Shown: positions 12,501 to 57,700 of the stretch, piece after piece
Position numbering within the stretch: the stretch's first letter is position 1
How the letters are laid out: every line of letters starts with the position of its first letter
Origin: Dipteris shenzhenensis
Lineage: Eukaryota
Assembly: GCA_047967505.1 (NCBI GenBank)
Contig: CM106538.1
Strand: one strand, 5' to 3'
DNA length: 64,000 nucleotides
The notes under the pieces: model-generated
The model's database searches: none
Told to the model about the DNA's origin: nothing
What the model saw: only the letters and a program-made list of their open reading frames with translations
Position numbers and translations under genes: made by a program

Positions 12501-13379
12501 ACGGCCTCCTCCCTGCTCTCGCACCCCCTGATGTCTGCCTTCTTGGGTAGGGATTCTTCCAGGTGGTTTTTAGGAGTCCGGAGGTGGCGAGCTCTGTGCT
12601 CCAAGCTAGCCCCTTGCCTTTGGGGTCTAGGATGATTTTTTTGCTACCCTTCTCCTTGTTTTGACCTGGTGCTTGAGGACATCAGGGTAACATCTCTCTT
12701 CATCAGATTTCCTAGTCTTCCACAGGTGTACCTTCGGCTTCTGGCCCGATAGGTGCCTCTTTTGGGGTTGTCACAGAGATCCCACCCATCACCGGCTTAC
12801 CTTCTTTTGCTACAGAGGCAGTTACTTTGGATGGGGTTCCCAGGGTCAGGGTCCTTGTTTTTGACCCAGATATTTCAGATGATCATATCATGCTTCAGAG
12901 GCCTGATGGCTCCTTTTTTAGGTAGAGAATTGAGATCTCTAGGCGTCAGGACTAGTGCACGATTTGCAGATGCTTTGGACACTTTGCCAGAGATTGTCCA
13001 AAGAAGAAGAAGAGGCCCAAAGGCTCGGGCCAAGCACCTGCACCTGCTGCTAGGCTAGGTGCACCTCTTGCTGGCAGGGTTACACACAGATGGGTTCCCA
13101 TCAGGGTGGTTCCTCCACTTCAGGCTCATCAGAAGGGGCCACTTCTTTCTACTTTCACTTGTCCTATAGGACTCGGAGACCTTGGAGCCATGGATGCCTT
13201 GGCTCAGGCCATTCACCCTGTGTCTACGTGGAGTGCTTGCAATTGTCCTCGAAAGTCACAGAAATCCACAAAAAACATTGTGAGCTTTCTTGAAGGTTCA
13301 TACTCATTGTTGTTGCCGAACACCCAAAACACGTGAAATTCTGTCACTTTCGATGGCAAAACATGTGAAAGAAGATAAT

Positions 13380-13925
13380 AATTGATGCAAAGGTGCATGC
13401 AAATCTTGTCAACAAGTCTCACTGCAAGAGTCCATGCATAACTTGCCTGTGTCCTTGTGTCCATCCCCATTAAAGGTAGCTACTCGCTTGGTAAGAACTC
13501 ACTTTTCTACTCCACTTCCTGTTACCCTATGCGCCTCTTGTCGCTATCTCCATCCCCCTCTTTCCTACACCCTCCCCACCTGATTTCACCATGTCCACCT
13601 CTTGTCACCTTGTCCCCCCTATCCACCTCCTCTCCACATCCTTTAAGTCCCTCCACTCCCAATACTACGATCACTATGAAGGTCATGGTAGCCACATCCA
13701 CATCTGTGACTACCCTAGGGCTGTATTGATGCCGATGCACTTGAGGGAGACCTCAACCTATATCCCAACGAGGTGGCAAAGTCAGAGAGGCAGATCCTGG
13801 AGGACTCTATCGAGGATATGCACATATGGATCGAGGCTTGTGGGCTGAAGCCCCTACGCATGCCACCTTCCCTCCAACAATAGGAGGAGAAGGTGAAGAA
13901 AAGGGCGGATAAGAAGGTAGCAAAG
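13380..13925 (+). repeat. left part of an unclassified small-ORF repeat, interrupted by the hAT insertion (continues 25897-26065)
   Basis: Shares GTGTCCATCCCCATTAAAGGT and the peptides SLHSQYYDH..MPMH..RQILE..CGLKP with 27570-28375; similarity resumes right after the hAT. Confidence 0.8.
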
Positions 13926-14292
13926 CAAGGATATTTTTATCGAAGGTATAGAAATATAGTATTATAATATACTGGCAAAATTTTTCATAAATTACTTTTA
14001 AAAGTTTCAAAGAATTGGCGAATTATATCTTTTGTTATAATTTTTGTTTCAAAACTTGGCTAAATATTCTAGGGCATTTAAAAAACTTTCAATTTTCACA
14101 AATATACTAAAAACTAGTTATATTGAAAACTCTGTCTTTTCCGTTTTACATAATTTCAAAATACATGAAATAGCTAGCATTTAGGATATTGTAGAGTATG
14201 CAAAACATAAAATTGTTTAAGGATAATGAATATCCTTCAAATCCAATGGGGGAAGAAAATTCTCAAAGTCTAGTTTAAATAGTCCAAAAAAG

Positions 14293-16971
14293 CTAATTAT
14301 AGCCTTTTCTTTTATAGCTTGACTTCCAGAGTGCTAATGCTCTATCATACGGAAAGCTAGTAACATCATAAGAACAAGAGTATAATCTCAAGCTAAGATC
14401 TAAGTTATCATCTAGCTTATTACGAAGCTTATTCTTCAAGTAACCGAGAGTACTAAAACACCTTTCATCCTCAACTGAATCAAGAATAAAGGTTTGACAT
14501 AAATTTGCAAGCTTGAAGTACTCAGAAATGTTATCTTGTAGGAATGTACTGCGAGAGAGCTCGTTCCAAAGCCGAACCATCGAACCTTGCATTTGAACGT
14601 TTTCCATTAAATTACTTTGCTAGTGCATGACTTCTCCAAAAAGGGAAGACTGTGAATAAAGCTTTCCAAAATCCAACAAACCATTGTACTTTATATTGTC
14701 CATGTCAATGTCCCGTCCAAAGTGTTTTTTGAGAGCATCCAAATGATTCTTTAGACCTGCTTTGATACTTTCATAAGATCCATTGACACAAAAATGTGGA
14801 AATATGATGGTAAATGCTTCCATTAGGTCATTTTGTGGAAACCTACTTCTAATCTCATCTACCACTGCACTTGCAACTTCACTAAGGGCATTTTTCAATG
14901 TTTGTACTTTCTTTAAAAAAGCCTCTTTTTTAATGTATTGTAGTTTTTTGTGTCATTTGTTTTCTCTCGTCATCCTGAAAACCTGATTGTTTGCACGAAG
15001 GTAAACATATCCTTCCTGGTCACATGTTAAAAGTGAGGAGTCCCCATCTAGGTCTATTAAACTTTTCCAATCTTTAAACAATTTCTCGTCTTGAAAACTG
15101 GAGCTTGACTTCTTATCGTATGCTGTTGTTATACTCAAATTAGTGAGTTTTATTGCCTTGACATATTCATTGATATAAATATCCTTTGATTGTGACATTT
15201 TACTCAACATATTCATTTTGTCTAAAAGTGGAATAATTCCACACAATCCTAATATCGAATCTATGTTGGTCAGTTTATGATACTTTTCAACCTCTTCTTC
15301 TACCTCCATGTGCATTAAATAGACCAAAGTCTTGTATTCATCCCATAATCTTTTCACTAGCTGAACCAAAGATATCGATCTAGTATCCACATTCTTCAAA
15401 ATCTTCCTCCCTTTTGTACCCAGTGCTTCTACAATAACTCTAAATTGATTGTATCTTTTTGGACTCTTGCAAAAGTAAGAGTAGCTTTTTTTAACCAACG
15501 TCTCGATTCGTTGTACTGATGGAAATGTGGACACAACTTTGTAAGCTAGATTTGTGCGATGAGTCATACAATGTATCCCAACACAGTAAGGAGTATATTT
15601 TGTTTCTATTTGTACAGAGACACCATTCCGAAAACCTTGCAAGACTGAAGCACCATCACATGCAAAACAAACAAGTTTCTTGACCATCTCAGACTCTATC
15701 ACGCCTCCATACTCTTTTAAAGCTTGGATCAAAACTTGCACTAAGTTATTAGCATTGGATTCTGAATTAAGTTTGTGTACATGTAAAAAATATGGTTTTC
15801 TCTTATTGTTTTCTACCACGTACAAATGCATTCCTAACCACGATGTAGTATCCACAGCTGTGTACTCATCCAATGACACATAAAAAAATTCTGCAAGTTT
15901 TAAAGTCTCCTTTAAATCATCAATTATGACTTGGTTCATGTGGTTAGCCATATTTGTTGCACTACTCCTTGACCAATGCATGCTTGCCAAATTAGGAACA
16001 GATTCCAAAAATTGAAGATATGATTGGTAACCCAAGAAGTCTATCAGTGAGTGGCCTTGCTTCAATATTTGCATGATAGTTGAGAATTGCACTATCTTTT
16101 CTCTATCAACCTGATCATCGATACATTCCCAACGCTTTTTCAATGATCCTTCACTTTTATTTCTGCTAGACTCTTGTGCAAGCAAGAACTTACTGTACTC
16201 AATCTCATTTTTTAATTGGCGGTTATTTTCCTTGTCCCATTCTTTGATCACTTTCTTTTCATTACTTGTACCTTCTATAGTCTTGTAAACCTTCCCACAA
16301 TGCTTCTCAATCATATCAATCTTCAATTGTAACCATGCCTCCTTTTTCCTTGCCCATGTGCATATTTTACAAATGGCCCACTTTGGTGCATCCCCAGTGT
16401 CCACTTGTTCTACATCTAACTAAGGATATTTGGCTACCCAATCTTCTTGAAAATTCCTACGAATATCCCAAGCTCTCTTTCTCTTCTGCTTACTTGAAGA
16501 GTTGCAATTTTGTGATGCATTCTCAATGGCTTCTTCAGTTGGTGTTGACATTGATGATACTTTTTCTGACATTTTTCCACTTTCCAATCCAGTTAAATCC
16601 ACTACCTCATTATTTGTCAATGATGTGCCAGCTGATGAATTTTCAATTCCAATTGCATTCCCTTGATTACAATTTTGTGATCCTGTCTTCCCTGCTTCCA
16701 AGACTTGAAAACTCAAATCCCTGTTAAAACTATCATCGTTAAGCAATGATCTAGAACATTGATTTCTAGCATGATGCATTGTGCCCAAAGCATGTTCAGG
16801 AGTCCCATAAATTGCTTCATGATTCATGGATGATGAACTTGAGAGTAAATTCTCTGGTGTACTTGATGTTGTAAACATGTTTATATTAGTGCCCAATGAT
16901 GTAGAAGGTAATAAGAAAGATGTCATTTTTGTATTTTTCTCTAGAGCTTGAACTTTCTTCTTTCTTCCCAT
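14293..16971 (-). pseudogene. hAT transposase (DUF4371/ZNF862-like plus hATC dimerisation domain), one frame with 3 premature stops
   Basis: Four ORFs share a frame; motifs RRNFQEDWVAKYP, CKIC, SLDE, ACDGAS, HCMTHRTNL, SVEDERCFSTL..LKNKLRNKL; stops at 16420, 14953 and 14620. Confidence 0.92.
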
Positions 16972-17325
16972 GATAAGTACCTGTATAAAAAATTATGTTT
17001 TTATCAGCAATTGAGCATAAAATAGAACATAATTTCTTTTCTCTAAACACATGCTGAAAAAATAGCATAATAATTCTTATCCTTATAAAATTATGTGCAC
17101 TTCAAGTGCATTGCAAATCAAGTATAACACATCTTCCAAGAGAAGAAATACTTTAATTTATTTTCATACAAATCTACTATATGAATACAAAATGAATACA
17201 AGTCCACCACATGAATACAACAAGATATTGCTAGCTTCAAAGCAACATTCATCTCATCAATTGGCCGCATTGCTAGACTTGCATTACATCCAAAGCAACA
17301 TTCAAAGGTAGATTGAGTATATTTT

Positions 17326-18988
17326 CTATGTTGCTAGCTTCAAAGCAACATTCATCTCATCAAGGGGCCGCATTGCTAGACTTGAATTACATCCAAATGT
17401 TGATAGGATACTATAGGTATCCATAAGTGCTATTCTCTCTACAGAATTCTCAGTCATCATCTTTTCAAAGGCATGTTTTTTTATACACTTTAATAGTGCA
17501 CTATCAGGCATGTGGCGAGACTGTTCAAAATACCCAACTGCATCTTCCCAAAACTGTATAATCTCTGTAATTATCCATCCTAATGCATATATGTCTGACT
17601 TAGGGCTATACACACCTCTCCTAGAAAAACATTGAAGCTCAGGTGTAAACCACTTCTTTCGTGCATGCTCTTACTCTTTCTTATGCTTCCTTTGTGTAAA
17701 TTGTTGGTCAGTCTCTAGAGGTGTCTTCTTCATATCCTTAAAAGCTTTTCTAGTCTCTAAAGAAACTAGTGCCATCCTTTAATCAATTATGCCAACTCTA
17801 CATGCACCATTTGCTGTGAAATCTAACTGAATGTTACCAGGATGTAAGTCTGTATGAATCCATTGACCCTTATGTAACCTTGCTAATCCAGCAATGAGTG
17901 CATGTATAATGTGGTGCACATTTGAACTAAAGTAGTTAATTTGCTCTATTTGCTCCCTTGTGCATACATCTTCCAATGTTCCTTATGCCCTTGCCTTTGT
18001 TTCTTTGCGTCTTTTTAGGATTATGTCAACATAGCACCTAAACCTGCCTTGCTCATATGGTAAAGTTCTCATGAAGTGCATCAAGCTACCACCGTTAAAA
18101 TATGGTGTGATAGTCCACAAGGGCTCTTCTGGAGTTGCTGCAACAACACGAACAAGCACAGGATGCCGAATTTGCATTTGTCCCTCCTTCCTTGCCTCTC
18201 GTGTAGGATCCCCTATGTCACCTTATATTGCTTTCCAGCATATAGCATATATGCTATAATAATCCTGGAGCACCTGTGAGTTGTACTTTGTAGACAAATC
18301 CATATGTGCCAGAACCTATCTTTTCACCAATTTGGATCTCATTTTCAGTTATGTACATCATGAAGGACACATTGCTTATATGACTTGCCCTGATTTGTAG
18401 CTTTTGAGAATCACTACCTTGCACTTCTCGCATTTTTCCATTCAAAATCCTTGCACTTTCTTCTCCTTTTGCTACTTCCTCTGCCCTTCCGAAAGTAATT
18501 GCTGACTTTTTCTCCCAACTTACAGCTAGTATGGTTTTCACATCCGACCTTATAACCTTTGTCTTATTTTTAGCCCAGAAGGAATTCCATAAATGCATCT
18601 TTTCCTCATTAATATCATTTGCAAATGTTGGGTTCCTTGCGCATGCTTCATTAAACCGAGCCAAGACATTCCCAATGTTGCTCTCTACCCATAGCATAAC
18701 ATCAGTGTCCCATTTTATGATCCCTACAAGGTGTTTCCTGTTAGGATCCAGTTCTACTTGACGCCTTGTATTCAAAACAACTTTGCTCTTTAGAGTATGC
18801 AATCTAGAAGTGCTTTCTATGGTCATCTCCATCTCCTTTGTACTCATGTTATTTATCTCTACAAGAAGCTCATCTCGAAGGACTTGATTGACATACTTTC
18901 GTTGTCCTTTAGATAACTCAAAATCAATAGCCTTACGCTTAGATCCTTCCATCCCTAAACCATATGTAGGATCAAAACAAAAGAGCAT
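17326..18988 (-). pseudogene. intronless protein kinase with ~190-aa N-terminal extension (disrupted)
   Basis: IGSGTYGFVYK, YAGK (shifted frame), IRHPVLVRV, PYFNGGSL, HTDLHPGNI, GIID*, WFTPEL, SDIYALG in order; frameshift near 18230-18260 and in-frame stops. Confidence 0.85.
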
Positions 18989-19059
18989 TCAAAAATAGTT
19001 CTAAATCTAAGAAATGGAACAGCTTTATCATAGCCCAACATACATGACATTGGTAACTT

Positions 19060-20486
19060 ATTAAAAAAAGAAGGATCACATCACATCATGCATACCAAAC
19101 AATAATGCATATGCATATTCACAACATAAACTTTAAAAAATAAATAAGCATATATTTTTGCAGGTTGTCAGCTAGAACTAAGGAACTTGGTCCTGGGTCG
19201 TGGTGCCTCTTAGCCCCCTACCTTGTGAGCGCAGGAACCAGACACCACTTCCTGAACCAAGCCCTTCTTTCATGTTTGAAATCATAATACTACACTACAT
19301 AAAGCATGCCAAACCAATTTCAACTTACTCTATACAATGCACCAATAAATACATTAAAAAAGAAAGAGCACATCACAGATAATGATGCATATGCATATTC
19401 ACAATAGAAACTTTTAAAAAATAAATAAGCATACATTCCTTCATCTTGTCAACTAGATCTAAGAAACTTGGTCCTAGGTCGTGGTACCTCTTAGCCCCCT
19501 ACCTTGTGAGCGCAAGGAACCAGACACCACTTCCTGAACCAAGCCCTTCTTTCATGTTTGAAATCATAATACTACACTACATAAAGCATGCCAAACCAAT
19601 TTCAACTTACTCTATACAATCCACCAATAAATACATTAAAAAAGAAAGAGCACATCATAGACAATGATGCATATGCATATTCACAATAGAAACTTTTAAA
19701 AAATAAATAAGCATACATTTCTTTAGCTTGTCAACTAGATCTAAGAAACTTGGTCCTAGGTCATGGTGCCTCTTAGCCCCCTACCTTGTGAGCACAGGAA
19801 CCAAACACCACTTCCTAGACCAAGTCCTTCTTTCATGTTTGAAATCTAATACTACACTACATAAAGCATGCCAAACCAATTTCAACTTACTCTATACAAT
19901 GCACCAATAAATACATTAAAGAAGAAAGAGCACATCACAGACAATGATGCATATGCATATTCATAACATAAACTTAAAAAAAATAAATAAGCATATATTT
20001 CTGCAGGTTGTTAGCTAGAACTAAGGAACTTGGTCCTAGGTCGTGGTGCCTCTTAGCCCCCTGCCTTGTGAGTGCAGGAACCAGACACCACTTCCTGAAC
20101 CAAGCCCTTCTTTCATATTTGAAATCATAATACTACACTACATAAAGCATGCCAAACCAATTTCAACTTACTCTATACAATGCACCAATAAATACATTAA
20201 AAAAGAAAGAGCACATCACAGACAATGATGCATGTGCATATTCACAACAGAAACTTTTAAAAAATAAATAAGCATACATTTCTTTAGCTTGTCAACTAGA
20301 TCTAAGAAACTTGGTCCTAGGTCGTGGTACCTCTTAGCCCCCTGCCTTGTGAGCGCAGGAACTAGACACCACTTCCTGAACCAACCCCTTCTTTCATGTT
20401 TGAAATCATAATACTATACTATATAAAGCATGCCAAACCAATTTCAACTTACTCTATACAATGCACCAATAAATACATTAAAAAAG
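19060..20486. repeat. tandem array of ~5 x 281-bp units
   Basis: AACTTGGTCCT.GGTC.TGGT.CCTCTTAGCCCC recurs at ~19183, 19465, 19747, 20027 and 20308. Confidence 0.95.
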
Positions 20487-21099
20487 ACTTGCTACCCATG
20501 TGGTAGCAGATCTGCTGCCTACATGTCAGCCTTAATTCTTTCCCTACTGTAGTTAATCCTCTACAGCTACTAGCTATGGTGTATGAAAGACCAAATAGAG
20601 ATTACACATACCAGTTTTAGTAGCACCCAAGCTTTAAGGCATCTCCTTCTGGTACCATGGATGTTGGTGATGGACAATTTCAAAGGATTGCAATAGATGG
20701 GGCATTGCCCACTATATGCCAACCTCCAATCTTGTCTCTATCTTACGCCTCAAAAACGATGGCCTGAATTAGACCAATAGTAGATTCATTAGGTGAGCAC
20801 CATACAAATGCATGGCCTAAAAGACAGCTCAAATATTACATGACAAATCAAGTAATCGACGTATTGTTCTGAAAGGCCAAATACGACACTACGTCGATCC
20901 TGAATAGTCATGACTCACACTCACAGACACACACACACACATGTATAACTAACAAAAGAAATTAAAAGTAAATATATGAGTAAAGCTTCTTAACAATATA
21001 TGAGTTAAGCCTCATGACAATAAAGAAGTCACATAAAGTCCTTAAGCCACTAAAAGACAAGAATTAGTGCTTCCTATAGTATCTCTTCCTTGTACCTCC

Positions 21100-21850
21100 C
21101 AACCAATAATTACATGTCCAAAGAAAATACCTTCTTTAAATAAAAGAGATTAACTCTTGGCAATCTAATGTTCCCAAATGAATCCTTGTTTAGCTATTAA
21201 CAATTAATGGAATTCTTATAAAATATTAGAGAAAATCCCAAGGGAGTATAACGCACATCCAAGTAATACTTAAGACTCCAAAGGGAATACTGTCCTTTAA
21301 AGGGATATGATAGCATCCAATAATGCACTATGAGAAGCCCCGACAATGTAGTATACTTCCTAATGAGAGCATTGAGCTCATCTTTTCAAGTACGAAATAA
21401 AGTATGGCTCGAACACGAGAATGCGAATGAAAATTAAATGAAACTAAATGCCAGTGCATGAGCCATCCCCCTAGAATACTTAAGAAAAAAGGTCGAGAGG
21501 GTGGAGATCTAAGGTCATTTCGCACTCAAGTAGAGAGTTGATTCATGCAACCAAGACATCTACTATTAACGATGCACAACATTGTTCAAACAACACAACC
21601 AATCTATGGCATGAGAAATGTTAGAGGGGGGGAAAATGTCTGGCCCTGACGACGTAGATGCTTTGGGAGATATTCCTGCAAGGATTGCTATCAGAGCATT
21701 AAAATTAGACGAGCCTCGATTGAGCTGGTAGATAAGAAATGACGTCAGTTCCTTGCAGAAAATGCTCCGAGGCATCAAGATTCTTGCCATAAATAGATTC
21801 TTTGGACTGCGAGAACTCGGCTTCCTTCCACACAAACGTTCATAAACAGC
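21100..21850 (-). pseudogene. possible heavily decayed LINE 3' (zf-RVT region) fragment
   Basis: T*VRNDLRS resembles the plant L1 WxxRNxxxF motif; Trp-rich broken frames. Confidence 0.3.
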
Positions 21851-21915
21851 TCATTTCCTACTCATTTTCCCATAGTCCCTAGTCGCTGTGAAGATCTCCA
21901 CCTCCAGACCTCCAC

Positions 21916-22338
21916 ATGAAGGACCCTCAGCTCTTCTCCATCCTTTTCCTCTCCCTCTCTTCCCTCTTCCTCCCCCTCTCGGCCTCCTCCTCCAGCCAAC
22001 CCCGCTACCTCAGCCCCCCACTCAAGTTCCAATTCTATCGCACCACTTGCCCCCAGCTCGAAAAGATCATAAAAGAGAGAGTTGCTTACTGGAGCTCCCT
22101 CGACGACACCACTCCTGCTCCTGTCTTGCGTCTCTTCTTCCATGATTGTTTCGTTCAAGGCTGCGATGCTTCTGTGCTCATCAACTCCACGACTAAATCC
22201 ACAGTAGAGAGGGATGCTACCATCAACTTTAGCATCGGAGATTTCTTTGTTTTGGATGACATCAAACAGCGTTTAGAGGAGTGTCCCGACACTGTCTCTT
22301 GTGCTGACACTATTACTCTCGCTACATGGAAGGCATAG
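21916..22338 (+). pseudogene. class III secretory peroxidase 5' fragment
   Basis: Signal peptide, FYRTTCP, LRLFFHDCFVQGCDASVLI, CPDTVSCAD; truncated after ~140 aa. Confidence 0.93.
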
Positions 22339-27159: not shown

Positions 27160-29105
27160 ACTAGAATAAAATAGTATGTTTTCGTGATATGTTTTAAGGT
27201 TTAGCCATAAGCTAGCCTATGTTAATGCAGACATGAAGTGCTTTGTTAATGTAAATGTGCCTTGTTAACTATTTGGAGGTCTACATTAATGTAGACTGTT
27301 CTTTGTGCTACGGCATTGTTGACTTGTTATTGTGATCTATTATGACGAATTGATTAATCGTATTACTAGATTAAAATTGTATGTTTTTGCGATAGGTTTG
27401 GCCATATGTTGGTCTGCATTAACGCAGACATGAAGTGCTTTGTTAATGCAAATGTGCCCCTCATGTCCATATGGCCATGCAAAGCTCATGTCCACTCACC
27501 CTCTTGAGCTTTCTTGGAGCTACGTATGCATATCTATCGTGGCCACCCAACATGCACGAGAAAGCTGATATTAATTGCATGAGAGGTGCATGCAAAAATC
27601 ATCTAAACCTTCCTTCTCGTGTCCATCTGGCCATGCAAAACTCGCTTGCGCCATTGTGTCCATCCCCATTAAAGGTCAAAACATCTCACTTATCCACTCC
27701 ACTCACCTGTGCCCTCTCCACCTCCTATCGATAACCTTGTGCATTTCTTCTCGCCTCGTCCACCCCCTTTCCCTTGCGCCCTCCCCACCTTCTCTTAGGC
27801 TGTGCACCTCTTATCGCTTGTCGCTTTGTCCACCCCCTCTTGCCTTCAGCCTGTTCAGATCCTGTCGGCCTGTCCACCCCCTGCCCACCTCCCGCCATGT
27901 CTTCATGGCACTACACAACTACAATAGCTACACTAACAGTGAGCTCATGCAATACCTTGAGTCCCTACACTCCCAGTTCTATGACCACTGTCAAGCTCGT
28001 GGCTACCACATCCATGACATCTAGGACTACCTCGGGGTTGCTCTCATGCCCATGCACAAAGGGGACCTGGACGTGAATTGGTACGAGGAGGGGAAGTCCA
28101 AGAGGCAGATTCTAGAAGAGTCAATTTATGAAATGCACAAATAGATTGAAGGGTGTGGCTTGAAGCCATTGTGCATGTCACCTTCCCTCAAACAATAGGA
28201 GGAGAAGGCGAAAAAGAAGGCGGAGAAGGAGGAGGATAAGGCATCAACTTTGCATGCTGGTGATAATTAGGTAGCGATGATTTCAATAGTGTGTTTGCAG
28301 AGGTGCTTCCTTACAAGAATCCTCTTACTTGTAAAGACATCTTTGCTATAGCAATATATAAAAGTTTTTGACAAAACATTTCATTGTCTCATTCCAAACA
28401 TTTTGAGTGAGTTAATTTAGCGTCTTTGTAATACCATTTGTTACTGTGAAGTTGCAATAAGATCTTGAAAGCTGGATCCATTTGTTTTTTCATCATCTTT
28501 GACCGAACGAAATCTATCCACAGTAAGACTGTGTCTCTAAACACATAACATATAGTTTACGAATGACATGGACGAGACTCCGACTCACAGGCCTCAAATT
28601 TGCAACCCTACCTTACACTTTAGTGAGAAGGCCATTTTTTACTATGGCCTTTTTAAAATAGTACGTTTTTGCGATATGTTTTAAGGTGTAGCCGTAAGCT
28701 GGTCTACTTCTCACAGACATGAAGTGCTTTGTTAGCTATTTGGAGGTCTAACTAGACTGTTCTTTGTGCCATGACATTGTTGACTTCTTACTGTGATATA
28801 TTATGACGAATAGAATAATCGTATTACTAGAACAAAATAGTATGTTGTTGCGATATGTTGTAAGGTTTGCCCTTATGTTGGTTTGTGTTAATGCAGACAT
28901 GAAGTGCTTTGTTAACGCAAATGTGCTTTGTTAACTATTTGGAGGTCTGTGTTAACATAGACCATTCTTTGTTATTATGATATATTATGATGAATTGATT
29001 AATCGTATTACATGCAAAAAATAGTATGTTGTCGCGATATGTTGTATTTTTTGGCCGTAAGCTTATCTGCGTTAATATAGACATGAAGTGCTTTGTTAAC
29101 GCAAA
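27160..29105. repeat. ~190-bp tandem repeat family (AGACATGAAGTGCTTTGTTA core) split by an insertion
   Basis: Core at ~27229, 27426, 28716, 28896 and 29079. Confidence 0.85.
27570..28375 (+). repeat. uninterrupted copy of the small-ORF repeat (decayed ORF 27905-28270)
   Basis: MALHNYNSY..SLHSQFYDHCQARGYHIHDI*DYLGVALMPMH..KRQILEESIYEMHK*IEGCGLKP, homologous to 13640-13925. Confidence 0.75.
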
Positions 29106-31881: not shown

Positions 31882-31954
31882 TCAAGCGACATCAGAAGAG
31901 GCTACCAAACAGGTGCAACAACTCCAGGCCAAAAAACAAGAGTTGCAGCATCCT

Positions 31955-32670
31955 CTCTAACACATCTTCTCATAATGTCATCCTTGCTGCAATGGTACAG
32001 TTGTCCGGCAATCAATTGGTAAGGGGTTGCATCCTTGATCAGCTTCCTTACGCGTTCTTTGTTTAAGGGATGGTCTTGGGGAAAAACATTGGTCAAAAAA
32101 TGTCCTATCTTTTTTGCCCATTCAGGAATAAGGTCGACCAAGAATAATGAAGCATTAGGTAGGTCATCATCTACTCCTGTGGGTGGTTCTCCATTAGGGA
32201 TTCTAGACATATGGTCAGCTAAAACATGTTGTGACCATTTACAAACCACAACGGTGAAATCAAATTCAAGGAGGATTAACATCCATTGTGTGATTCTTCC
32301 TGTCATATAAAGCTTGTTGACCAAGTACAACATTGCTTGGTGATCTACACAAAACACAAATTTGTTGGCCAAGAGGTAATGCATGAATTTCTTCATTGCA
32401 TACACCATGCCTAACCCTTCGCATTTAGTCGTTGTATAGTTCATCTCAGTGGAGTTCAACTAGTGATTGGCAAAGTACACTAGATAATCTAAGTTGTATT
32501 CTCCTAGTTGTGCTAATACACACCCAATGGCCACGTTCAAAGCATCTACATGGACATGGAATATGAAATCCCAATGGAGGTCTCAATATGGGTGCACTTG
32601 CGAGTGCGTGCTTAAGAGTTTCAAAAGATATTTGGCACTCATCAATCCATACAAATATGGGTTTTAACAT
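31955..32670 (-). pseudogene. Ty3/Gypsy RT-RNase H fragment
   Basis: SFETLKHALASAPIL, NYTTTKCEGLGMVYAMKKF..VDHQA..LEFDF..LADHMSR. Confidence 0.9.
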
Positions 32671-33214
32671 TTTGCGAGTTTATTTTCTACGAGTTTTGCG
32701 AGTTTTTCAATATATGCAACCACAATAATATAGCTAGTGGCTAGCTATATTTAACATGCAATCTTGGAATATGTACATGTTGATGATGCAATTTTACATC
32801 ACACCAAACTTTCAAAACAACAATTCCACAAGAATAGCTATGAGCAAAATGTTTATTAAAACTTAGCACTCATAACATGTTTTATAGCCAACATTTGTTT
32901 GACATGTGATTTTAAAATGAATAGTTGCTTTCGATGAAATATTGCATGACACCAAACCTCAAAAAACCTTTTTCAGAAGAATAGAAAATCATCATAGTGT
33001 TTACCTCAAGTAAGATAATTAATACCATCTAGATAACCTTGACATTATAATATATCCAGAAACATAATGCCTTAATATCACATGAAATCAAGGACAAAAA
33101 CAAAAGCTCATTGATAGGCTTTGCAAACCATAAATCTAATCCTCCGGAAAGTTTCTAAACATAATACTCTACCAGGTTTCTTAACAAAACCCTCGACCAA
33201 GTTTCTGGTTGCAC

Positions 33215-33481
33215 TAAATAAAGTTCTTGGAGATAAATAAGACAACACTGAAAACGAAAGATAGCTGAAGAAGAAATATATATCACCAAAGGAACTCAAT
33301 ACAAGAGAAGAGATATGTGCGAAAGAAACTATGGAGGGGGCAAACAGCAGTCCTCCAGAGTAGTCAACTGAAGTGGGCTCTGCACTAGCTCCACAAGTTG
33401 GAACTAAACCAGATCTAGGTCAGCAACCTATTGCCAAAAGAGCAAAGGTTTGCTGCAGATCTGCAAAGAAGGGCAGCAACA
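33215..33481 (-). repeat. inverted copy of the distal half of the Copia LTR
   Basis: Reverse complement aligns with ~36735-37002. Confidence 0.9.
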
Positions 33482-36400
33482 ATTCCAGATCACTGCTGAT
33501 GATGATCTGAAGGTAAAGCTGGCAGACTACCAACGGTTAATTGCTGAGTTTGCCACAACTGGTCCTCCCAAATCCGAGGATGACCAAGTTACTTTCTTTT
33601 TGAACAAACTCCCACCTAAGTACTTCAGTTTTATGCAGCAAATCATTTCTCAACCCTCCCTTCCTACCTTTTATGAGTTCGAATGTCAACTCTTGCGTTA
33701 TGCTCGTCTCTACTCTCAGGTTCACCAAAAACATAGTGTTCCTGCTTCAGAGGGGGCTCTTCTCTCCGGGATTCAAAAAGATCAACTCAACTCTAAGAAG
33801 CCCTCTCCCACTCCTGACTCCAATAATTCCTCTGGTATTAAACCCGCCTGGCACAACCTTCTAAAAAAGAACCGGTTTTGTCAGCATTGCCAGAAAGTTG
33901 GGCATGTTGATGACGAATGTCGCTCCAAAGCCGAAGGCATTCTCCCACAACCCCCCAACACGACTCTTCTGCCACCTCGCTGGCGCCCTAGGAGTGGTCC
34001 TCCTCCACCTAACGCTAGCCCTTGGAGACCATAGGGCCATGTCACTAATCAGTTCACCCCATCCCCTCCCTTCATCACTCCCGAAGGCCTGTCTGACTGG
34101 TCCACTGGAGATTCTCTAGACTTCACTTCCCAGGCCTTGATCCATATCACCGAGCTTGACTCCTCCCCATCCATATCTGGATCAGCATTTCATACTCTAC
34201 CATGTGGCCATAAAGCCCCTTGGATTGTGGATAGTGGAGCCACTCATCATATGACCCCTCATCGTGATCTCTTCATTTCTTGCCAACCGGCAACAGGGGG
34301 AGTCCGCTGTGGCAATAACTCTGTCGCTCCTATTCGTGGCGTTGGTTCAATCAAATTTGATACCGACAAAGGCCCCAATCTTGCTCAGTTGGATCAAGTG
34401 TTTTATGTCCCCCAATTAGGGGTCAATCTTCTTTCCATCCATCAACTTTGCCTTCTTAGTCGTGCGGTGCTATTTACAAAGACGCATGTCGAAATCATAG
34501 ATGAGACATCAGGACTCCTTTTAGCTCAGGGCGAAGCCCAACCTCATGGTCTGTACCTCATGACACAATTTCTTGAGACTCCCTCCAATACCGGCTCTGA
34601 GTTTCATCGGCTTCATGGTCTTGCTACCCTGAAAGATCCGACTGACACAGAACAATTGTGGCATTATCGACTGGGACATTTGTCCTATGACTCTTTATAT
34701 GAAATGTCTCGGGATCATTTGGTTGATGGCCTACCTCAATTATCACGAGCCAAAGATATTTGCTGTCCATGCCAATTAGGCAAACAAAGCAGATGGAACC
34801 CTAGACAAGTACAAAGCTCGCTTAGTAGTGCAAGGATTTCGCCAAAAACATGGTATCGATTATGAGGAAACCTTTGCACCTACTACTCGGTTGACATCCT
34901 TTCACCTCCTCCTCGCTCTAGCTGCTCATCACAGCTGGTCTATCTATCAGATGGATGTCAAGAGTGCCTTTCTCAATGGCTACCTCGATGAGGAAGTCTA
35001 TGTGGCTCCCCCACCAGGTTTTTCTCCTCCTAGCCATGAAAATAAGGTATTCCGTCTCCGCAAAGCTCTTTATGGGCTTAAACAAGCACCTCGGTCCTGG
35101 TTCCACCGAATAGACACCTTCCTCAAAACTAATGGGTTTCATTCCACTCCTTTTGATCCGAATTTATATATACATCAATCTTTAGAGGGGGTCTGCTTTA
35201 TCTTACTTTACGTAGATGATCTTTTGCTTTTGGGCTCTACCACCACCACGCTTCAATCCATTAAAACACAACTCAGCACCACATTCGAGATGACCGTCGA
35301 TCTTGGTCTTCTCTCCTATTTCTTGGGCATGGAAGTTGAGCAGCATTCTGGTGGTATCTTTGTTTCTCAATAGAAATATGCTCTTCAACTCCTTGATCAG
35401 ATCATCCCCCACGAGCCTAAGCCAGCTGCCACTCCCTTGGATCCCACAGTCAAGCTCTCAAAGGACTTGAAGTCTCCTCCCTTTGATGAACATCTCTATC
35501 GTCAAGTTGTTGGCAAGCTACTCTGGCTCATTCACACTTGTCCAGATCTTTCTTACTCAGTTTCTATTCTTAGTCAGTACTTTAATGAACCCAAGCACAC
35601 TCATTGGCATGCATGTATTCGTATCTTACAGTTCATACGTGGTACTTACTCTTATGGTTTACATTTCAGACCTCGACTAACACTACAGGGATACACTGAT
35701 TCCGACTGGGTTAGAGACTCGGACAATCCCCGTTCTCATGGTGGCTACATTTTCTCGTTCGGCTCGGCACCTGTTTCTTGGTCCAGCCGTAAACAAGAAA
35801 CTGTTGCTGGATCTTCTACTGAGGCTGAATACCGGGCCTTGTATGATTGTACCACAGAGGCCATATATCTCCGGCAGTTTCTGGCAGAGCTACACTTTCC
35901 TTGTACTGAACCAACGGTCCTCTACGTCGACAATAAAAGTGTCATCGCTCTCGCCGGCAATCCCATTTTCTCCAACCGCACCAAACATGTTGGCGTACAC
36001 TTTCATTTTACTCGCGAGCAAGTGGAACTGGGTACTATTCGATTGATATATGTTCCAGCTGCCGATAATCATGTTGACATTCTTACCAAGCCGGTTAACT
36101 GACCTTTTCTTGAGCATCTTAGCCCACAGCTGGGGATTGGTGTACCGCCTCCTTCTCCTTGGCAGTATTTTTTTTGTATACTAGTGCTTAAAGGAAGTGA
36201 ACAAATCCCTTGTGAGGGCACTCCTTAAGCATCTCTCTTTCTGTACTCTATGATTGTACCATCACTACTGGGCATTTAGTGAAGATGAAAACCTACTTTG
36301 TAGGCATCTCCATCTAAATGAAAACCCTCTTACCCAAAAAAAAAAAAAAAAGGGCTGATGATGAAGATAGATCACCCCTGGAACCATTTTTTGATTACCC

Positions 36401-50600: not shown

Positions 50601-53105
50601 CACCTATCTGATACTATTTGCATGGAAGCACCAACATGAAGCAACGTACCACATGGTCGCCAACAACACCTGGTTGAGCACCAATGCTCTAGCAACTAAG
50701 GAAAGTCTAGCAGTACTCTAATATGCTAACTTCTTGCGAATGCTCTTTAGCACTTGGGCAAACTGCTGCGAGGGGGACACATCTACTCCAACTTGGAAGC
50801 CCAAATACTTGGTGGCGGTGCCTCTCGGTATCCAAGCAAAACCTTTGTCCACACCCCAAGATGGAGTATCCTACTGAGCTCTAGTCCAAATACCCTTCAA
50901 CTTATTCCGATTGACAAGTCCTCCTGAGGCTAGGCAGAACTTGTCAATGGATGCGGCGGTGCAAGTGAGACTATGACAATCACCCCTAATCGTCAGTGCA
51001 GTATCATCAATAAACTCAGTGTCCAAAAGCTCTTGCTCATGCCTGATCGGAAGAGATAGCCCCAGAGTGCCATGACTGGTAGCCTGCATGAAGTACCCTA
51101 GAGCCTCGGCCACAAAGAGGAGATAAGGAGCAAGAGGACAACCTTGACAGACCGATCTAGATAACTGAAAAGTAGGTCCTCTTCCTCCACAAAGGACCAT
51201 CCTGCTAGTTGAGTGGGAGTATAAGGAAGAACTCTAAGAAATCCATCTGTCACTGAAACCAAGCCTCCTCATGGTGCCCTCCAAGAAACTCCAGTTAACT
51301 CTATCACAAGCCTCCTCAAAGTCGAGAAGTAAAACTGCAGTGTCCTGCTGACTCTCCCGTGCCCAGTGTGTGGCCTCCCAAAAAGTGAACACGATGTCTA
51401 GGATACTCTGATCCTGAACAAAACCAATCTGAGTGGCTCTGAGAATATCTTGCATCAGAGGTTTGAGTCTCAAAGCCAAGGTTTCCGCTAAGATTTTGTA
51501 GGCAGTCCCAAGAAGAGTGATAGGTCTCCAATTGCGGAGGAGTGATTTGTCTCTCCCTTTCGGGATGAGACAAATAAGACCTATGCACATGGACTCGCCC
51601 AAAGATCCTAGCTCAAGAGCCTTGGAAAAAGTAGGCAATAGATGAGGCCCAACTGTATCTCAAACAAACCTGAAGAAAAGTGGAGAAAGGCCATCCTTGC
51701 CTGGGCATATGTCAGAAGGAAGATCCCGTAAGGCATCTGTGAGCTCCAGTAGAGTCAAGGGACTTTCAAATCCAGAAGGTCTGCTGAGAGTAAAATCTGA
51801 ATTGAGCTCTCCTGCCCTGCAAGTCCTCCAATCTCTCATGGGCTTGCTGACCTTTTATGAATAAGGAGTCTGGGAAACTCTGTACCAACCCCTAGAGTCT
51901 GGCTACCTCGGCTCTCTGAGATCTCTCTCTGAGTCTAATCCTTGCTTTCTCATGCTTGGCTCTATCCTGACAAGCATCATTGACTCTAGCAAGAGCTCTT
52001 TTTACCCATGTAAGCCACTCAACCTCCCCTAGTAACTCCTCAGAGAGCCAAGTGTCGCTAAGCATCTGTACAAACTCCGCCTCCTAGAAAATAAAATCAA
52101 GGACTCTCACTGAAGCCGAAGTCTCCATTCTGGAGGTGGCCAGGACCTGCAACAAAATTGGAGCATGATCTGATAAAGTAAAACTTGGTCGGATACCAAC
52201 CTGTCCTCCTCTAGCCTAGCCCCACTGGCCAACATAAAATCTATCCAATCTAGCTAGAGAAAGGGATCCATGGGAAGTGCCTGACCAGGAGAACTGCAAG
52301 CTGTTAGGCATATGAGAGAAGTCATCTAGCCAAAATGCATCTTGAAGCCCGGCCTGTAAAATGAAATTGTCCCACTCTGCTCTTTCTCTGTTTGAAAGAC
52401 CGCCCCAATCCAAGTGTCAGCCTGGGGGAGGGCATCTTTGATTTGTCTCCAAAAAACCCATCTAGGTCCCTGCCTCTGTGGGAGCATACACATTGAGAAC
52501 ACCAACCAAAGTGTTCTCAACCTGGATGGTAATAAAGGCCGCCCTGCTCTCCACCAGTGTGCCCTCCTGAATGACCTCTGAAGCCCACATGGCTGCCACT
52601 GCAATACAAATCCCACCCCTATTGTCAGCTGCTGGACTCCAGAAAGTCCTACTCTGGCCTCTAAGTAAAGAACTGCATCTGTCAATCCTATCCTGAGACA
52701 GCTTGTGCTCCTGAATGAGCACAATATCCGGAGGAGAGCCTGAAGACATGAGCCGGAGGGAGTCTCTAAGTATCTGCAATCTAGGTACTCCTACCCTGTT
52801 GTTGAGATATCAAGCTGTAGCCCCGATGTATCTCCTCGGTGACTATCATTTATGTCACCGCCTATATTGGTTTTACTCGTGGTGTAGTTAGACTGCCACG
52901 TATGTTTTGGTTTGGGTTCACATACGAACCACGTATTCTAGGGTTTGACATATAGGGTATACCCCTCTCCTATTGTATTGTTGTTGTGTGCTATTTTCAA
53001 CTGAGTGAAGATAAGCTTCAGCCTCCACATCTTGTGTCCTCCCTCTTGTGTATGTTGTGAAGAAGCTGCAATCGAGCCTCCTCCCTCTCTCCCGCATTCT
53101 TTACA

Positions 53106-53117: not shown

Positions 53118-54616
53118 TTGGTTCGTGGTGAGGAGCTCAAGTAGCAAGAAGAGGTTGCGATACCCTGGTAAGAGGATTTGCGTCTTCTTTCATTTTGGAT
53201 GCTGGGGAGCATATCTCTGCAAGTACACAGCCGTGAGTGCAAGGTGCACTGTCACTGATTCCGACGCCCCGGTGTGAAGCTCGGGTGCATTACCCCGAGA
53301 AAAACAAACTGCGAAGTTTGTGACGCGTTGAAATCGCGGTTCAGGGCCGTTTCGGGGTCCGTTTTGGCATCGCAAAGTTTTCGCAGGCACTCAGGAGAAG
53401 TAGCCGTTTTTTACTGTGTATGCTGTATTTTCGCCTACGTGCGATTTGTGACAGACAGGTTGCTGTGTGACACCGGTGCAGAGATTTTGAGAAACGAATG
53501 CCATTTTGGGTTACTGTGTTTATGCATATTCGTCACTTGAAGTGACTCATGGTTGCTTGCCACTGCCCTTGTGAGGCTGTTTGCAGAAGTGTTGTTGTTT
53601 GCCCTTGTGAGGCATTTGCTGTGTTTCCAGGTTAATGTTGCAATTTGTGATTTGCAAAATGTCTGAGAATCTATTTACTATTGTCAGTGAGAAGCTTGAC
53701 AAGAATAACTTCCAAGCATGGAAGTTCAGGATGACAAACTTCCTCATGGAAAAGGGAGTTTGGGAGTACACCAGTGGGGAAAGTGTAGAACCAGTATTGG
53801 GAGCTGCTTCCACTCCTACTGAATTAAAGGCCTTTAAAGAATGGCATGAAAAAGCCAGGAAATGCCTGTACTGGTTGTTTGTCAATATTTTAGATTCCAT
53901 GATTGTGCATATACAAGATGTAGAGACGCCTAGGGATACATTGGTGAAGCTGTATAGTACAAATACAAATACACGAAAGATGCAGCTTAAGCAGGAGTTG
54001 CACAATGTGTAGAGGAAAAATCTGAGTATAAATGAGTACTCCTTGAAGGTGAAAGGTCTTGCAGAATCTCTTGGATCCATTGGAGCACCTGTTGATGATG
54101 AGGACTTAGTGTCCGTGACCTTGAATGGTCTTGGGAAGGATTATGCACAGTTTCGGACATCCATTGGAGTCCGTGAAACATTTTTTGATTTTCAGGAACT
54201 TATTGCTCTCTTGCTGAGTGAGGAGCAAAGGAATGGTGGTTCAGCCACATCAACTTCTCAAGAGTGTGCCTTCTACTCGAATACAGGTAGAGGCAGGGGT
54301 AGAGGAAGAGGCTGTTTTGGCGGCCGCACAGGAAATCAAAATCAACAGCAGCAATAGGAAAACTAGTCCTATGGAGGAGGACGTGGTACTTCTAGAGGCA
54401 GGGGGAGCCAAAGAGGCCGTGGTACATGGCAAAGGAACCAACAAGTAAATAGCAGTACATAATGCTATTATTGTGAAATTCTGTGCTATTATTGTGAAAA
54501 GCCTGGGCACAAGGAGAATACCTGCCATAAAAAGCAGAATGACATCAAAAGTGGGAAGTTGCAGCAAAGCAACTATGCGTCATCATGCGGGCACGGTGAT
54601 GACATAAATGAGCACC

Positions 54617-54735
54617 TTTTTTTTTTTTTTTTTCATGAAAAAGACTTCTATTAAGTAAGAACAAAAACCCGCGAGAGCAAGCTCAAAGCGGAATACATCA
54701 TGAAATCATGAGGATAATAAAAAACCCCCTCAGAG
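54617..54735 (-). mobile_element. short poly(A)-tailed retro-insertion (SINE or 5'-truncated LINE) inside Copia gag-pol
   Basis: T17 tract at one end; flanked by TGACATAAA(A)TGAGCACCTTTTT direct repeats at 54600 and 54736. Confidence 0.8.
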
Positions 54736-57700
54736 TGACATAAAATGAGCACCTTTTTGTGATGCAGCATATGGTTAACTCCATGACAGGAGATGTTGCA
54801 GCTTGCAATGATGTTTGGTATGTTGATTCAGGTGCTTCTAACCACATGACCACTCATGATGAGTGGTTTCATGATGTCAGAAATCTGAATAAGCTAGGTT
54901 ATGTTGAAACAGGTGATGATAGTGCGCACCCAATTACGTAAGTTAGTAAAGTGCCATTGGCTATGCAGGATGGCAAAACGAAGTACTTGGCAAATGTACT
55001 TCATGTTCCCAAAATCACCAAGAAGCTGGTTTCAGTTGGCCAGATGGTTGAGCAAGGTCTGCAGGTCAGATTTAATCTTGATGGATGCTTTGTTGAGGAC
55101 TTGAAAAATAAGTGCCGCCTGGTTACAAAAGGCAACAAAAATGGCAGAATGTTTACCTTGGATGTTGATATGCCTGAGGTGAAGCTGCTATGTTTGCGCA
55201 TGGGAGAGGTGTCATTGCAGATATTGAGATATGGCACAAGTGCATTGGGCACGTGAATATACAAAGGCTGAAATCTATGCAAACGAAAAACATTGTTGCA
55301 GGTTTGTCTAAATTCAGAGTCGAGGGAATGTAAAAGGTATGTGAAGCATGCCAAATGGGCAAGCATGCATTTCTAAAAAATGCTAAGGTGAGCAGAAGGC
55401 CTTTGGAAGTGATCCACTCAGATGTGTGGGCAACCAAAGCTGCTTCTATTGGTGGATGCCATTACTATGTGACGTTTATTGATGACTACACTAGGAAGGT
55501 GTGGATTTATTTTATGAAACACAAAAGTGAAGTGTTCAGCTATTTCAAGGCTTTTAAGGCCATGGTTGAAAAAGAGAAAGGTGTGCACATTAAGGTGCTA
55601 AGATCTGATGGAGGGGATCTGATGGAGGGGGAGAATACTTTTCACAAGAATTCAGTGAATATCTGAAAGAACCGGGAATTAAAAGGAAGTACTCATGCAG
55701 GTTTACCCCTCAGCATAATGGGGTTGTAGAAAGGAAGAACATGCATATTGCAGAAGTAGGACGAGCGATCCTAAATGAGAAAAATATGCCAGACTATTTT
55801 TGGGCTGAAGCAGTAGCAACTGCTGTTTATATTATGAACAGAACCCCCACTGCAGCTGTCCATGGCATGACACTTGAAGAAATGTATACAGGTCAAACCA
55901 AATATTTTTCACTTGACGGTATTTGGTTGCATAGCTTATGTTCATGTTCCTGATGAGAAAAGAACAAGGTTGGATCCAAAGGCAGAAAAATGCATCTTCA
56001 TTGGATATGCTCTGCATCAGAAAGGGTATCGCTGTTATAACCCTTCCACTCGCAAAATGCAAGTGAGCAGAGATGTTGTCTTTGATGAAATGAGCAGTTG
56101 GTATGCACCAACTGTTATGGTAGGAGATGCAGATGCAGGAAATGGGAATGCTGTAGTAAATGCACAGCAGCAATCTCAAGCCTTGAGTGGACCAGGAGAG
56201 TTCTCTACTAGTGGATCTAATGCATGGACAGGGAGATTCAGATCTAGTGAATCGTCACATGGCAGTTTTGATAGTGTTGTGCAGGTATCACTGTGCAGGT
56301 ATCACGCAAGGGAAAAGAAAAGGTGGACCATGCTCCAGTGTTTAATGTCTCAGCTGGTAGCTCTCGTGTTGATGGAGAGTCAAGTGGCTTTGAAATGAGC
56401 CTTGATGAGGTACTGGGGATTCCCTCTGTTGTTACACCTGGTGTAAGAAAAAGCATTAAAGACTCTTGCAAGTGATCCAATTGTATGCAGGTCCACTCGT
56501 GTTAAGTATCCAGTTGACAGGCTGAGATATGATGGGTATACATCACATCACTATGCTTATATGGTGAAGGTTCTAGAGGGACCAGAGCCCACATGCTTTG
56601 AGGATGCAGCAGGGCATAACAATTAGGAAGCGGCAATGGATGAAGAGATGGTTGCCTTGGATGCAAACCACACTTGGGATTTGATGCCTTTGCCTCATGA
56701 TAAGAAGGCTATTGGTTGCAAGTGGGTTTACAAATGGTCTTTGCATCAGATCGATGTGAAGAATGCTTTCTTGCATGGTGATTTGCAAGATGAGGTGTAT
56801 ATGATGCAGCAAAAGGTTACGAGGATGATGCACACCCCGATTTTATATGCAAGTTGCGCAAAGCCTTGTATGGCTTAAAACAGGCGCCCAGGGCATGGTC
56901 GAACAAGATAGGGCAATATCTTGTTACTATCGGATTTCAGATTTCCAATGCAGATTTTTCACTTTATGTGAAAAGGACAGACAAGGGGATTGTGCTTGTA
57001 GTCATCTATGTTGATGACTTGATCATTACAGGTGATAGTGATGCAGATATAAATCAAGTGAATCTGCTTTTGAAGCAAAAATTTGAGATGAAAGATTTGG
57101 GAGAGCTGTGTTACTTCTTGGGCATTGAGGTTATTAGATCCCTAAGTGGAATATGGCTGTTGCAGAGGCAATATGGTTTGAACATGCTGTCCAAATATGG
57201 GATGATAGGCTGTAAGCCTATTTCTGTTCCATTGGAGCAAAATGTGAAGCTCAGTGCAGAGGTAGGTGAACTTCTTGAAGATATTACTATGTACAGGCGC
57301 ATAGTAGATAGCTTGATTTACATGACTATCACCAGACCAAATTTGAGCTATGCTGTGGGGTTGGTGAGTCAGTTTATGCAGGCACCAAGGAAGCCACATT
57401 TGGATGCGGCTAGATGCATACTGCGGTATGTGAAGTCCTTATTGCATTATGGATTGTTTTATGAAGCTGGGTGTGCATTACAGGTACATGGGTACACAGA
57501 TGTTGATTGGGCTGGTAGTGTCTCAAACAGGAGATCTACTAGTGGTTTTATGTTTTCCCTTGAGAGTGCTACCATCTGTTGGAGCAGCAAGAAGCAGCCC
57601 TTGTCGAGCACAGAGGCTGAGTACAGGGGTGCAACTATGGCTGCATGTGAGGTAGCTTGGTTATGAAAGCTACTTGCAGATATGGGACAATCAGTTCATG

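Follow-up and report, generated by a model that had tools for sequence, protein, structure and literature searches.

The locus examined here raises the question of whether a transposon can have a protein kinase gene of its own. Within a 64,000-nucleotide stretch of DNA from Dipteris shenzhenensis (hereafter the window), a broken kinase-like gene lies on the same strand as, and directly upstream of, a broken hAT-like transposase gene. An initial annotation proposed that the kinase may be a resident second gene of the transposon family rather than a recently captured host kinase. For eukaryotic cut-and-paste transposons, the transposase alone is commonly regarded as sufficient, and classical hAT elements are not known to have a second gene. 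We favor, with some reserve, the interpretation that the window holds a dead copy of a multi-copy hAT-like transposon whose lineage carries genes for both a kinase and a Hermes-fold transposase. This dead element would begin near 13918 and reach 19134 at the least, with an end at about 20490 being probable.

The surroundings are repeat-rich land-plant DNA, with pieces of Copia-type reverse transcriptase and integrase, LINE-type reverse transcriptase and gypsy-type RNase H. Two related Copia-type elements (53550-58000 and 60669-62000) contain near-identical gag-like and reverse transcriptase/RNase H pieces, and other decayed retroelements are found at 31905-36100 and 50874-52809. The first exon of a class III peroxidase (21892-22335, plus strand; PF00141, E 1.7e-23) is located ~1.4 kb beyond the tandem array that precedes the kinase.

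An atypical kinase pseudogene and its relatives

The kinase-like pseudogene occupies 18988..17326 of the minus strand (1663 nt, corresponding to 554 codons, intronless); all features of the two genes and of the spacer between them given below are on this strand. It consists of a 244-residue N-terminal extension followed by an ePK-like domain. The 5′ part of the gene is a 244-codon open frame (18988..18257) that ends in the G-loop GSGTYG (18316-18299), and the remainder of the kinase domain lies in a second frame (18222..17326). The read-through of this second frame, with X at the stops (P0001), matches the Pfam families PK_Tyr_Ser-Thr (PF07714; E 3.5e-11, 43.4 bits versus a cut-off of 23.1) and Pkinase (PF00069; 35.5 bits, cut-off 31.7). 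Scores against APH (19.9 bits, cut-off 23.2), whose match is confined to the catalytic loop, and Kdo (18.5 bits, cut-off 21.3) are both below cut-off, and none of the APH or atypical kinase-like families of Pfam (APH, Kdo, ABC1 and RIO) gives a domain-wide match above cut-off. The N-terminal region has no Pfam match.

The catalytic loop, HTDLHPGN (17856-17833), retains the Asp and Asn of HRDLKxxN, with His in place of Lys and Thr in place of Arg. Further downstream are GIID, which is directly followed by a TAA (17781-17779), WFTPE at the APE position (17652-17638; the family form is LAPEL), DIYALGW (17595-17575) and the natural stop codon TAG (17328-17326). Six lesions, four premature stops and two frameshifts, interrupt the 554 codons. 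A premature TAG (18256-18254), a +2 nt frameshift near 18240 and a -1 nt frameshift near 18220 together break the stretch in which the β3-lysine motif is expected (18218..18256), and the other three stops are TAA codons (17985-17983, 17781-17779 and 17673-17671). The second of these TAA codons represents a spoiled Trp codon, since relatives carry the Trp of a DWG motif at this position.

Other copies of the sequence were available from two low-coverage DNA runs (X1 and X2) with the same species label, which were aligned to 13500-21800 at 80% likeness. Other copies without the two extra nucleotides at 18240 account for a depth of 23.5 out of 39.8 in X1 and 30.9 out of 53.2 in X2, and an extra C behind 18220 is present at all depth in both runs. 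Combining these two indel states yields a continuous kinase frame that reads YAGKQYKG, where the best relative, P0005, has VGKKYKG. An intron at the frame break (GT..AG, 18271-18223) was considered and rejected, since the pseudogene is colinear with P0005 and the indels of the other copies close the frame. The colinearity with P0005 and with a 555-residue fern protein (P0053), the N-terminal 244 residues included, indicates that the kinase gene is intronless.

A full HMMER pass against 1.84 billion (1.84e9) representatives identified only 48 proteins at E<=1e-3; their lengths are mostly 57-360 residues, and P0005 is the best match (E 9.5e-37, 52% identity). The named relatives are hypothetical proteins from Adiantum nelumboides, Adiantum capillus-veneris and Diphasiastrum complanatum, two ferns and a lycophyte. 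They occur at several loci per genome, among them GOP47_0026011, GOP47_0030942, L7F22_000015, L7F22_034811, L7F22_030593, L7F22_007633, O6H91_07G007400, O6H91_08G070000 and O6H91_08G071500; some are near-identical and many are truncated or have spoiled motifs, a spread that resembles that of a mobile family. P0053 aligns colinearly with the window kinase over the N-terminal extension (pairwise E 5e-6) as well as over the kinase part (3e-29), and the two share a C-terminal end motif. The window kinase is thus not a fragment, as the initial annotation had held, and the N-terminal extension that it could not recognize is present in the family.

In an alignment of 26 sequences (A2), the catalytic Asp is kept in 21 of 26; the DLH motif has its His in 24 of 25, and 20 of 24 read IDWG. 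Because HxDLH and DWG are kept across the aligned relatives, they are family traits and not products of decay; the suspicion that the window's GIID-stop is a former DWG is borne out, and the unusual catalytic loop noticed at the outset turns out to be characteristic of the family. DWG is also found in CK2 alpha, and a DLH loop in Haspin and in many APH-type kinases. The G-loop, β3 Lys, HxD, catalytic Asn, DWG Asp and APE are all represented in the family, in which the β3 motif is VAKKY or VGKKY, and the loop Arg of HRDLKxxN is replaced by Cys or Thr. The C-terminal end (RP[LI]xE[ML]) is conserved, and the N-terminal region of ~250 residues is family-specific.

The family is most similar to TK/TKL kinases (RIPK1, BRAF, IRAK4, Eph, FGFR), as judged from Pfam scores above cut-off, the Foldseek match and the core motifs. 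P0053 scores 60.9 bits against PF00069, and its 23.5-bit match to APH is confined to residues 385-428, which contain the catalytic loop. The closest PDB profile match of the kinase has an E-value of 1.5e-9, and ordinary kinases match weakly. An AF2 model of P0053 (pLDDT 54.6) is confident in the C-lobe only, with the N-terminal extension predicted as low-confidence helices; in Foldseek, this low-confidence model matches TK/TKL kinases (best E 3.9e-4, prob 1.00). However, the family differs from TK/TKL kinases in its loop H[C/T]DLHxxN, with His at the position of the Ser/Thr-kinase Lys, in having DWG for DFG, and in its private N-terminal ~250 residues and RP[LI]xE[ML] end, and there is no close family among them.

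Other searches gave a similarly narrow distribution. A word search of proteins with P0001, among near lengths, found no match, and one with alignment A2 included at least two Adiantum proteins among the matches listed. The Atlas search with the kinase returned generic kinase clusters only, and a pattern scan of prokaryote genome contigs had no match. The sole locus from a scan of viral contigs (L081, 6934-7146) encodes a 46-residue stretch from the catalytic loop to DWG that shares 40-48% identity with members of the family; a transposase is absent from this contig. A distant branch of a similar kinase type is represented by P0033 and its cluster P0054-P0058, intact 528-residue proteins on contigs of 2.1-2.5 kb, which have an N-terminal extension and the motifs HNDIAPTN, ICDWG and RRWVAPEL, and are 22-24% identical to the window kinase (tblastn). 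Since all named relatives are from seed-free vascular plants, the fungal or otherwise foreign origin that the initial annotation had contemplated is without support. Its view that this is not a recently captured ordinary host kinase agrees with our finding that the sole clear relatives form a small orphan family.

A transposase with a Hermes-like relative

The hAT-like transposase pseudogene (16971..14293) starts with an ATG at 16971, and its frame comprises 900 codons (16992..14293). This single frame is interrupted by three premature stops (TAG 16422-16420, TGA 14955-14953 and TAG 14622-14620) and by no frameshift. The encoded protein contains a CxxC..HC finger (16371-16291), followed by CDGASV (15660-15643), HCMTHRTNL (15573-15547) and, near the C-terminus, ERCFSTLG (14466-14443); we take the underlying DGAS, C.HxxNL and ERxFS motifs to be those of hAT transposases. 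Within the conserved C-terminal ERxFS region, a piece of ~55 nt (14465-14520) is loose-ended on either side in the DNA runs, where its depth rises to 268-374, and it seems to be common at the DNA level to more abundant repeats.

The transposase is colinear with P0002 (819 residues; 35% identity, a single tblastn segment 16539-14296) and is 39.8% identical over 757 residues to an intact 874-residue ORF found on two metagenome contigs, L001 (408-3032) and L002 (409-3033). No Pfam family was matched by the 900-residue read-through at E<=1, nor by the L002 ORF or P0002 at E<=10, and another relative, P0003, matched DUF4371 weakly (17.9 bits, cut-off 32.1). A sequence comparison of the transposase with the PDB, including Hermes, gave no match. 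The predicted model of the L002 ORF (677 residues, pLDDT 64.8), searched against the PDB with Foldseek, had Hermes as all ten of its top ten matches (E 1.2e-8 to 1.3e-6); the TM-scores by target are 0.50-0.55 over ~600 aligned columns, and they apply to the modeled relative and not to the broken copy of the window. Thus, the hAT-like label derives from the Hermes-like fold of a relative, a fold with an RNase H-like core and a large all-helical insertion, with no support from sequence models. The window transposase resembles hAT elements such as Hermes and Ac in this fold of a 40%-identical relative and in the N-terminal CxxC..H finger. It differs from them in the lack of a Pfam hAT match and of a sequence match to Hermes; in addition, 8-bp TSDs and TIRs were not found at the window element, and a second gene is present.

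We then asked how widely the kinase accompanies transposases of this type. A metagenome scan with the transposase alignment detected 192 relatives, from which 80 loci (872 kb) were taken that form 50 groups at 97% identity. The ORF of L001 and L002 is the only intact long ORF among these 80 loci, and it may belong to a live element. Thirty kinase-family queries against the 80 loci gave no match at E<=1e-5 and none that was credible at E<=1. In 47 of the loci (31 of the 50 groups), the sequence ahead of the predicted transposase start is at least 2.1 kb long, and no kinase is found in any of these 47; in L001 and L002, which are the closest relatives, the contig ends 407 nt upstream of the ATG. 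These metagenome relatives are only 26-40% identical to the window transposase. The kinase is therefore no regular companion of this transposase clade as a whole. Judging by length, the contigs of P0008, a 232-residue kinase C-terminus (3625 nt), and of P0002 (3638 nt) might each accommodate a kinase end, a spacer and a transposase.

A probable repeated unit containing both genes

The kinase stop and the transposase ATG are separated by a spacer of 354 nt (16972..17325), so that the initial description of an intronless kinase of ~550 codons, upstream of the transposase and on the same strand, proved accurate. The 3′ end of the kinase (17328-17397) recurs as a 70-nt copy in the spacer (17225-17294). 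On its 5′ side, the kinase is immediately preceded by a tandem array (19099..20487; TRF, 92% matches), in which a 281-bp unit is repeated 4.9 times.

In the DNA runs, coverage is unbroken between 13929 and 19134 and resumes over the tandem array. Mean word depth is similar for the two genes, with 20.0 over eight transposase bins and 24.5 over six kinase bins in X1, and 20.6 and 26.0, respectively, in X2. The flanks have a depth of 0 at 13500-13776, 20425-20978 and 21256-21800, and the sequence from 20425 on is empty apart from one weak bin. Since the kinase stretch has a depth of 17-35 in both low-coverage runs while the unique flanks are uncovered, it is repeated and not single-copy. The aligned contigs are mostly 95-99% alike to the window (47 of 89 in X1 and 30 of 60 in X2) and, therefore, represent paralogous copies rather than the window locus itself.

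The left boundary of the repeated unit, on the 3′ side of the genes, is at 13918..13929. Contig matches start at 13929 in both runs, and one contig of X2 (record 9, 4043 nt) has 2.5 kb of unlike sequence beyond this boundary. An older repeat in the flank (13367-13917), which is like 27560-28232, loses its homology at 13917. We used this older repeat to search for the right end of the unit; the homology ends at 13917/28232 and does not resume. The array has a depth of 20-55, the highest of the covered stretch, and is probably a subterminal part of the element, although it could alternatively be an independent satellite. A perfect 16-nt inverted match connects 14924-14939, in the transposase coding region, with the ends of four array units (19348-19363, 19630-19645, 20191-20206 and 20472-20487). 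The inverted 8-mer GGTAGCAA at 13916 and 20496 was tried as a pair of element ends and rejected, having no matching TSD.

No boundary is detected between the kinase and the transposase. Contig breaks in this region coincide with the 70-nt duplicate, and one contig of X2 (record 12) spans 17043-17257 with two differing letters. A derivative of the family lacks 865 nt (17094..17958), and with them the catalytic half of the kinase as well as the greater part of the spacer. Its joint, 17093>17959, is present in both runs (depth 10.2 in X1 and 18.7 in X2, with only 30 letters on the shorter side) and ties mid-kinase sequence to the transposase leader. Based on the similar depth, the empty flanks, the joint present in both runs and the indel states of other copies that close the kinase frame, we take both genes to lie in one repeated unit, with a length of no less than 5.2 kb and more probably of 6.6 kb. 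The physical association of kinase and transposase in this genome is thus well supported. The proposal of a resident second gene is thus supported in part: the two genes are repeated together in this species, but none of the 31 distinct testable groups of distant transposase relatives holds the kinase, and neither TIRs nor a TSD enclosing both genes were found.

Origin and possible role of the kinase

Both genes are pseudogenes in the window copy, and the copies differ in how the two have fared. The window kinase has six lesions in 554 codons and the transposase three in 900, and the probability that at least six of nine would fall in the kinase is 0.08 (binomial). The kinase is therefore lesion-denser without significance, and the similar decay originally noted for the two genes is contradicted by the counts but not by the statistics. 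Among the 12 of 25 indels listed, the further kinase indels in other copies (-2, +2, -13 and -4) all shift the frame, while three of the four transposase coding indels are multiples of three, which suggests weaker constraint on the kinase. The 865-nt deletion of the kinase seems common among copies (in X2, depth is 8-9 inside the interval versus 28-31 beside it). Among the 40 of 287 substitution differences listed, one is in the kinase and 30 are in the transposase, with 7 synonymous and 23 non-synonymous changes in the latter, a pattern that is about neutral. Silenced repeats are expected to be rich in transitions, and these account for 141 of the 196 differences in X1 and for 152 of the 213 in X2. 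At the premature TGA of the window transposase (14955), other copies have CGA. RNA-seq, to which the initial annotation had looked for the kinase, did not bear out its expression: in two runs with the same species label, sampled 19 and 24 in 100, there were 0 reads on the kinase, and just 1 and 4 reads, respectively, aligned at all at a likeness of at least 80%.

These observations bear on a rather unlikely alternative, in which a complete kinase of a host family was taken up once, by transduplication or as a retrocopy, and was amplified as inert cargo. Such a passenger would account for the frame-shifting kinase indels and common deletion beside mostly in-frame transposase indels, for the lesion counts of the window copy, and for the absence of a kinase from all 47 testable transposase-relative loci (31 groups). 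However, the kinase gene is complete and intronless, in the same orientation as the transposase and equipped with its own start and stop, whereas plant genes captured by transposons are usually fragments. Furthermore, its frame is open across the break in other copies, and the searches gave no close host kinase: 52% identity is the most that any relative reaches, and the relatives are fragmentary and multi-copy.

It is improbable that two separate multi-copy repeats, a kinase-bearing repeat and a one-gene hAT element, are nested or adjacent here. Such an arrangement would fit the outcome of scans for terminal repeats (TSD with at most 1 mismatch, TIR with at least 10 of 14), which found no pair enclosing both genes; looser settings gave AT-rich pairs only, and the best left-right inverted match (26.3 bits) is equalled by 3 of 50 shuffles and is no better than chance. 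An imperfect 28-nt inverted pair (14206-14233/17070-17097) flanks the transposase alone, and none of the contigs listed, which are 200-600 nt in length, bridges both ORFs. Nevertheless, other copies run through both arms of this inverted pair (13929-14549, 13929-15469 and 17043-17257), depth is alike over both genes, the joint 17093>17959 recurs in two runs, and the genes share a strand at a spacing of 354 nt. An ordinary decayed host kinase pseudogene lying by chance beside a transposon insertion, for which the abundance of decayed genes and repeats in the window might speak, is highly improbable given that the kinase stretch is covered at a depth of 17-35 by contigs 95-99% alike while the unique flanks are uncovered.

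We therefore return to the two-gene hAT-like transposon, of which the kinase is likely a lineage-specific accessory gene. The complete same-strand ORF, the open frame of other copies and the conservation of motifs as far as ferns and a lycophyte speak for a kinase that may once have worked for the element. In the founder element, the kinase gene would have been open and its product an active ATP-dependent phosphotransferase, as suggested by the catalytic motifs present in the family. This product may have acted in trans to the benefit of the element, most likely by phosphorylating either the transposase or a host factor involved in chromatin or silencing. The kinase would have been dispensable in cis, such that copies with a broken or deleted kinase could still spread using proteins made elsewhere. 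We more tentatively suggest that, among seed-free vascular plants, a hAT-like lineage has had a kinase of its own for a long time, one that forms a distinct ePK branch with the HxDLH..N loop, DWG and the private N-terminal domain. The fragments in Adiantum and Diphasiastrum would then be remains of such elements, and the kinase would be a regulator whose substrates are the transposase or host proteins of silencing or chromatin.

Among the openly accessible articles searched, there was no report of a kinase gene in a hAT element or in a plant transposon. The nearest parallel is found in the TBE Tc1/mariner transposons of Oxytricha, where a separate kinase-domain ORF of unknown function is reported beside the transposase (PMC4724952). 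As described there, TBE elements differ from the window element in transposase superfamily and host kingdom, in the zinc finger of that ORF and in having three ORFs, and the likeness is one of gene content as described. Fungal DNA transposons are reported to encode TET/JBP dioxygenases as lineage-limited accessory enzymes (PMC12730594); the enzyme, hosts and transposase groups are different from ours, and the shared idea is that of an accessory gene in some lineages.

Lineage-specific accessory enzymes reveal how elements steer their own activity or their host. Even if the kinase were mere cargo, the window element would still represent a rare case in which a hAT element captured and amplified a whole gene. 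If the tentative reading of a long-carried, phosphorylating kinase is true, no earlier accessory kinase of this kind would be known from the hAT superfamily or from plants. A kinase borne by a plant hAT element would offer a testable case of phosphorylation control supplied by the element itself, and it would explain why the genomes of ferns and a lycophyte contain unannotated kinase fragments in multiple copies, which could otherwise be miscounted as part of the host kinome.
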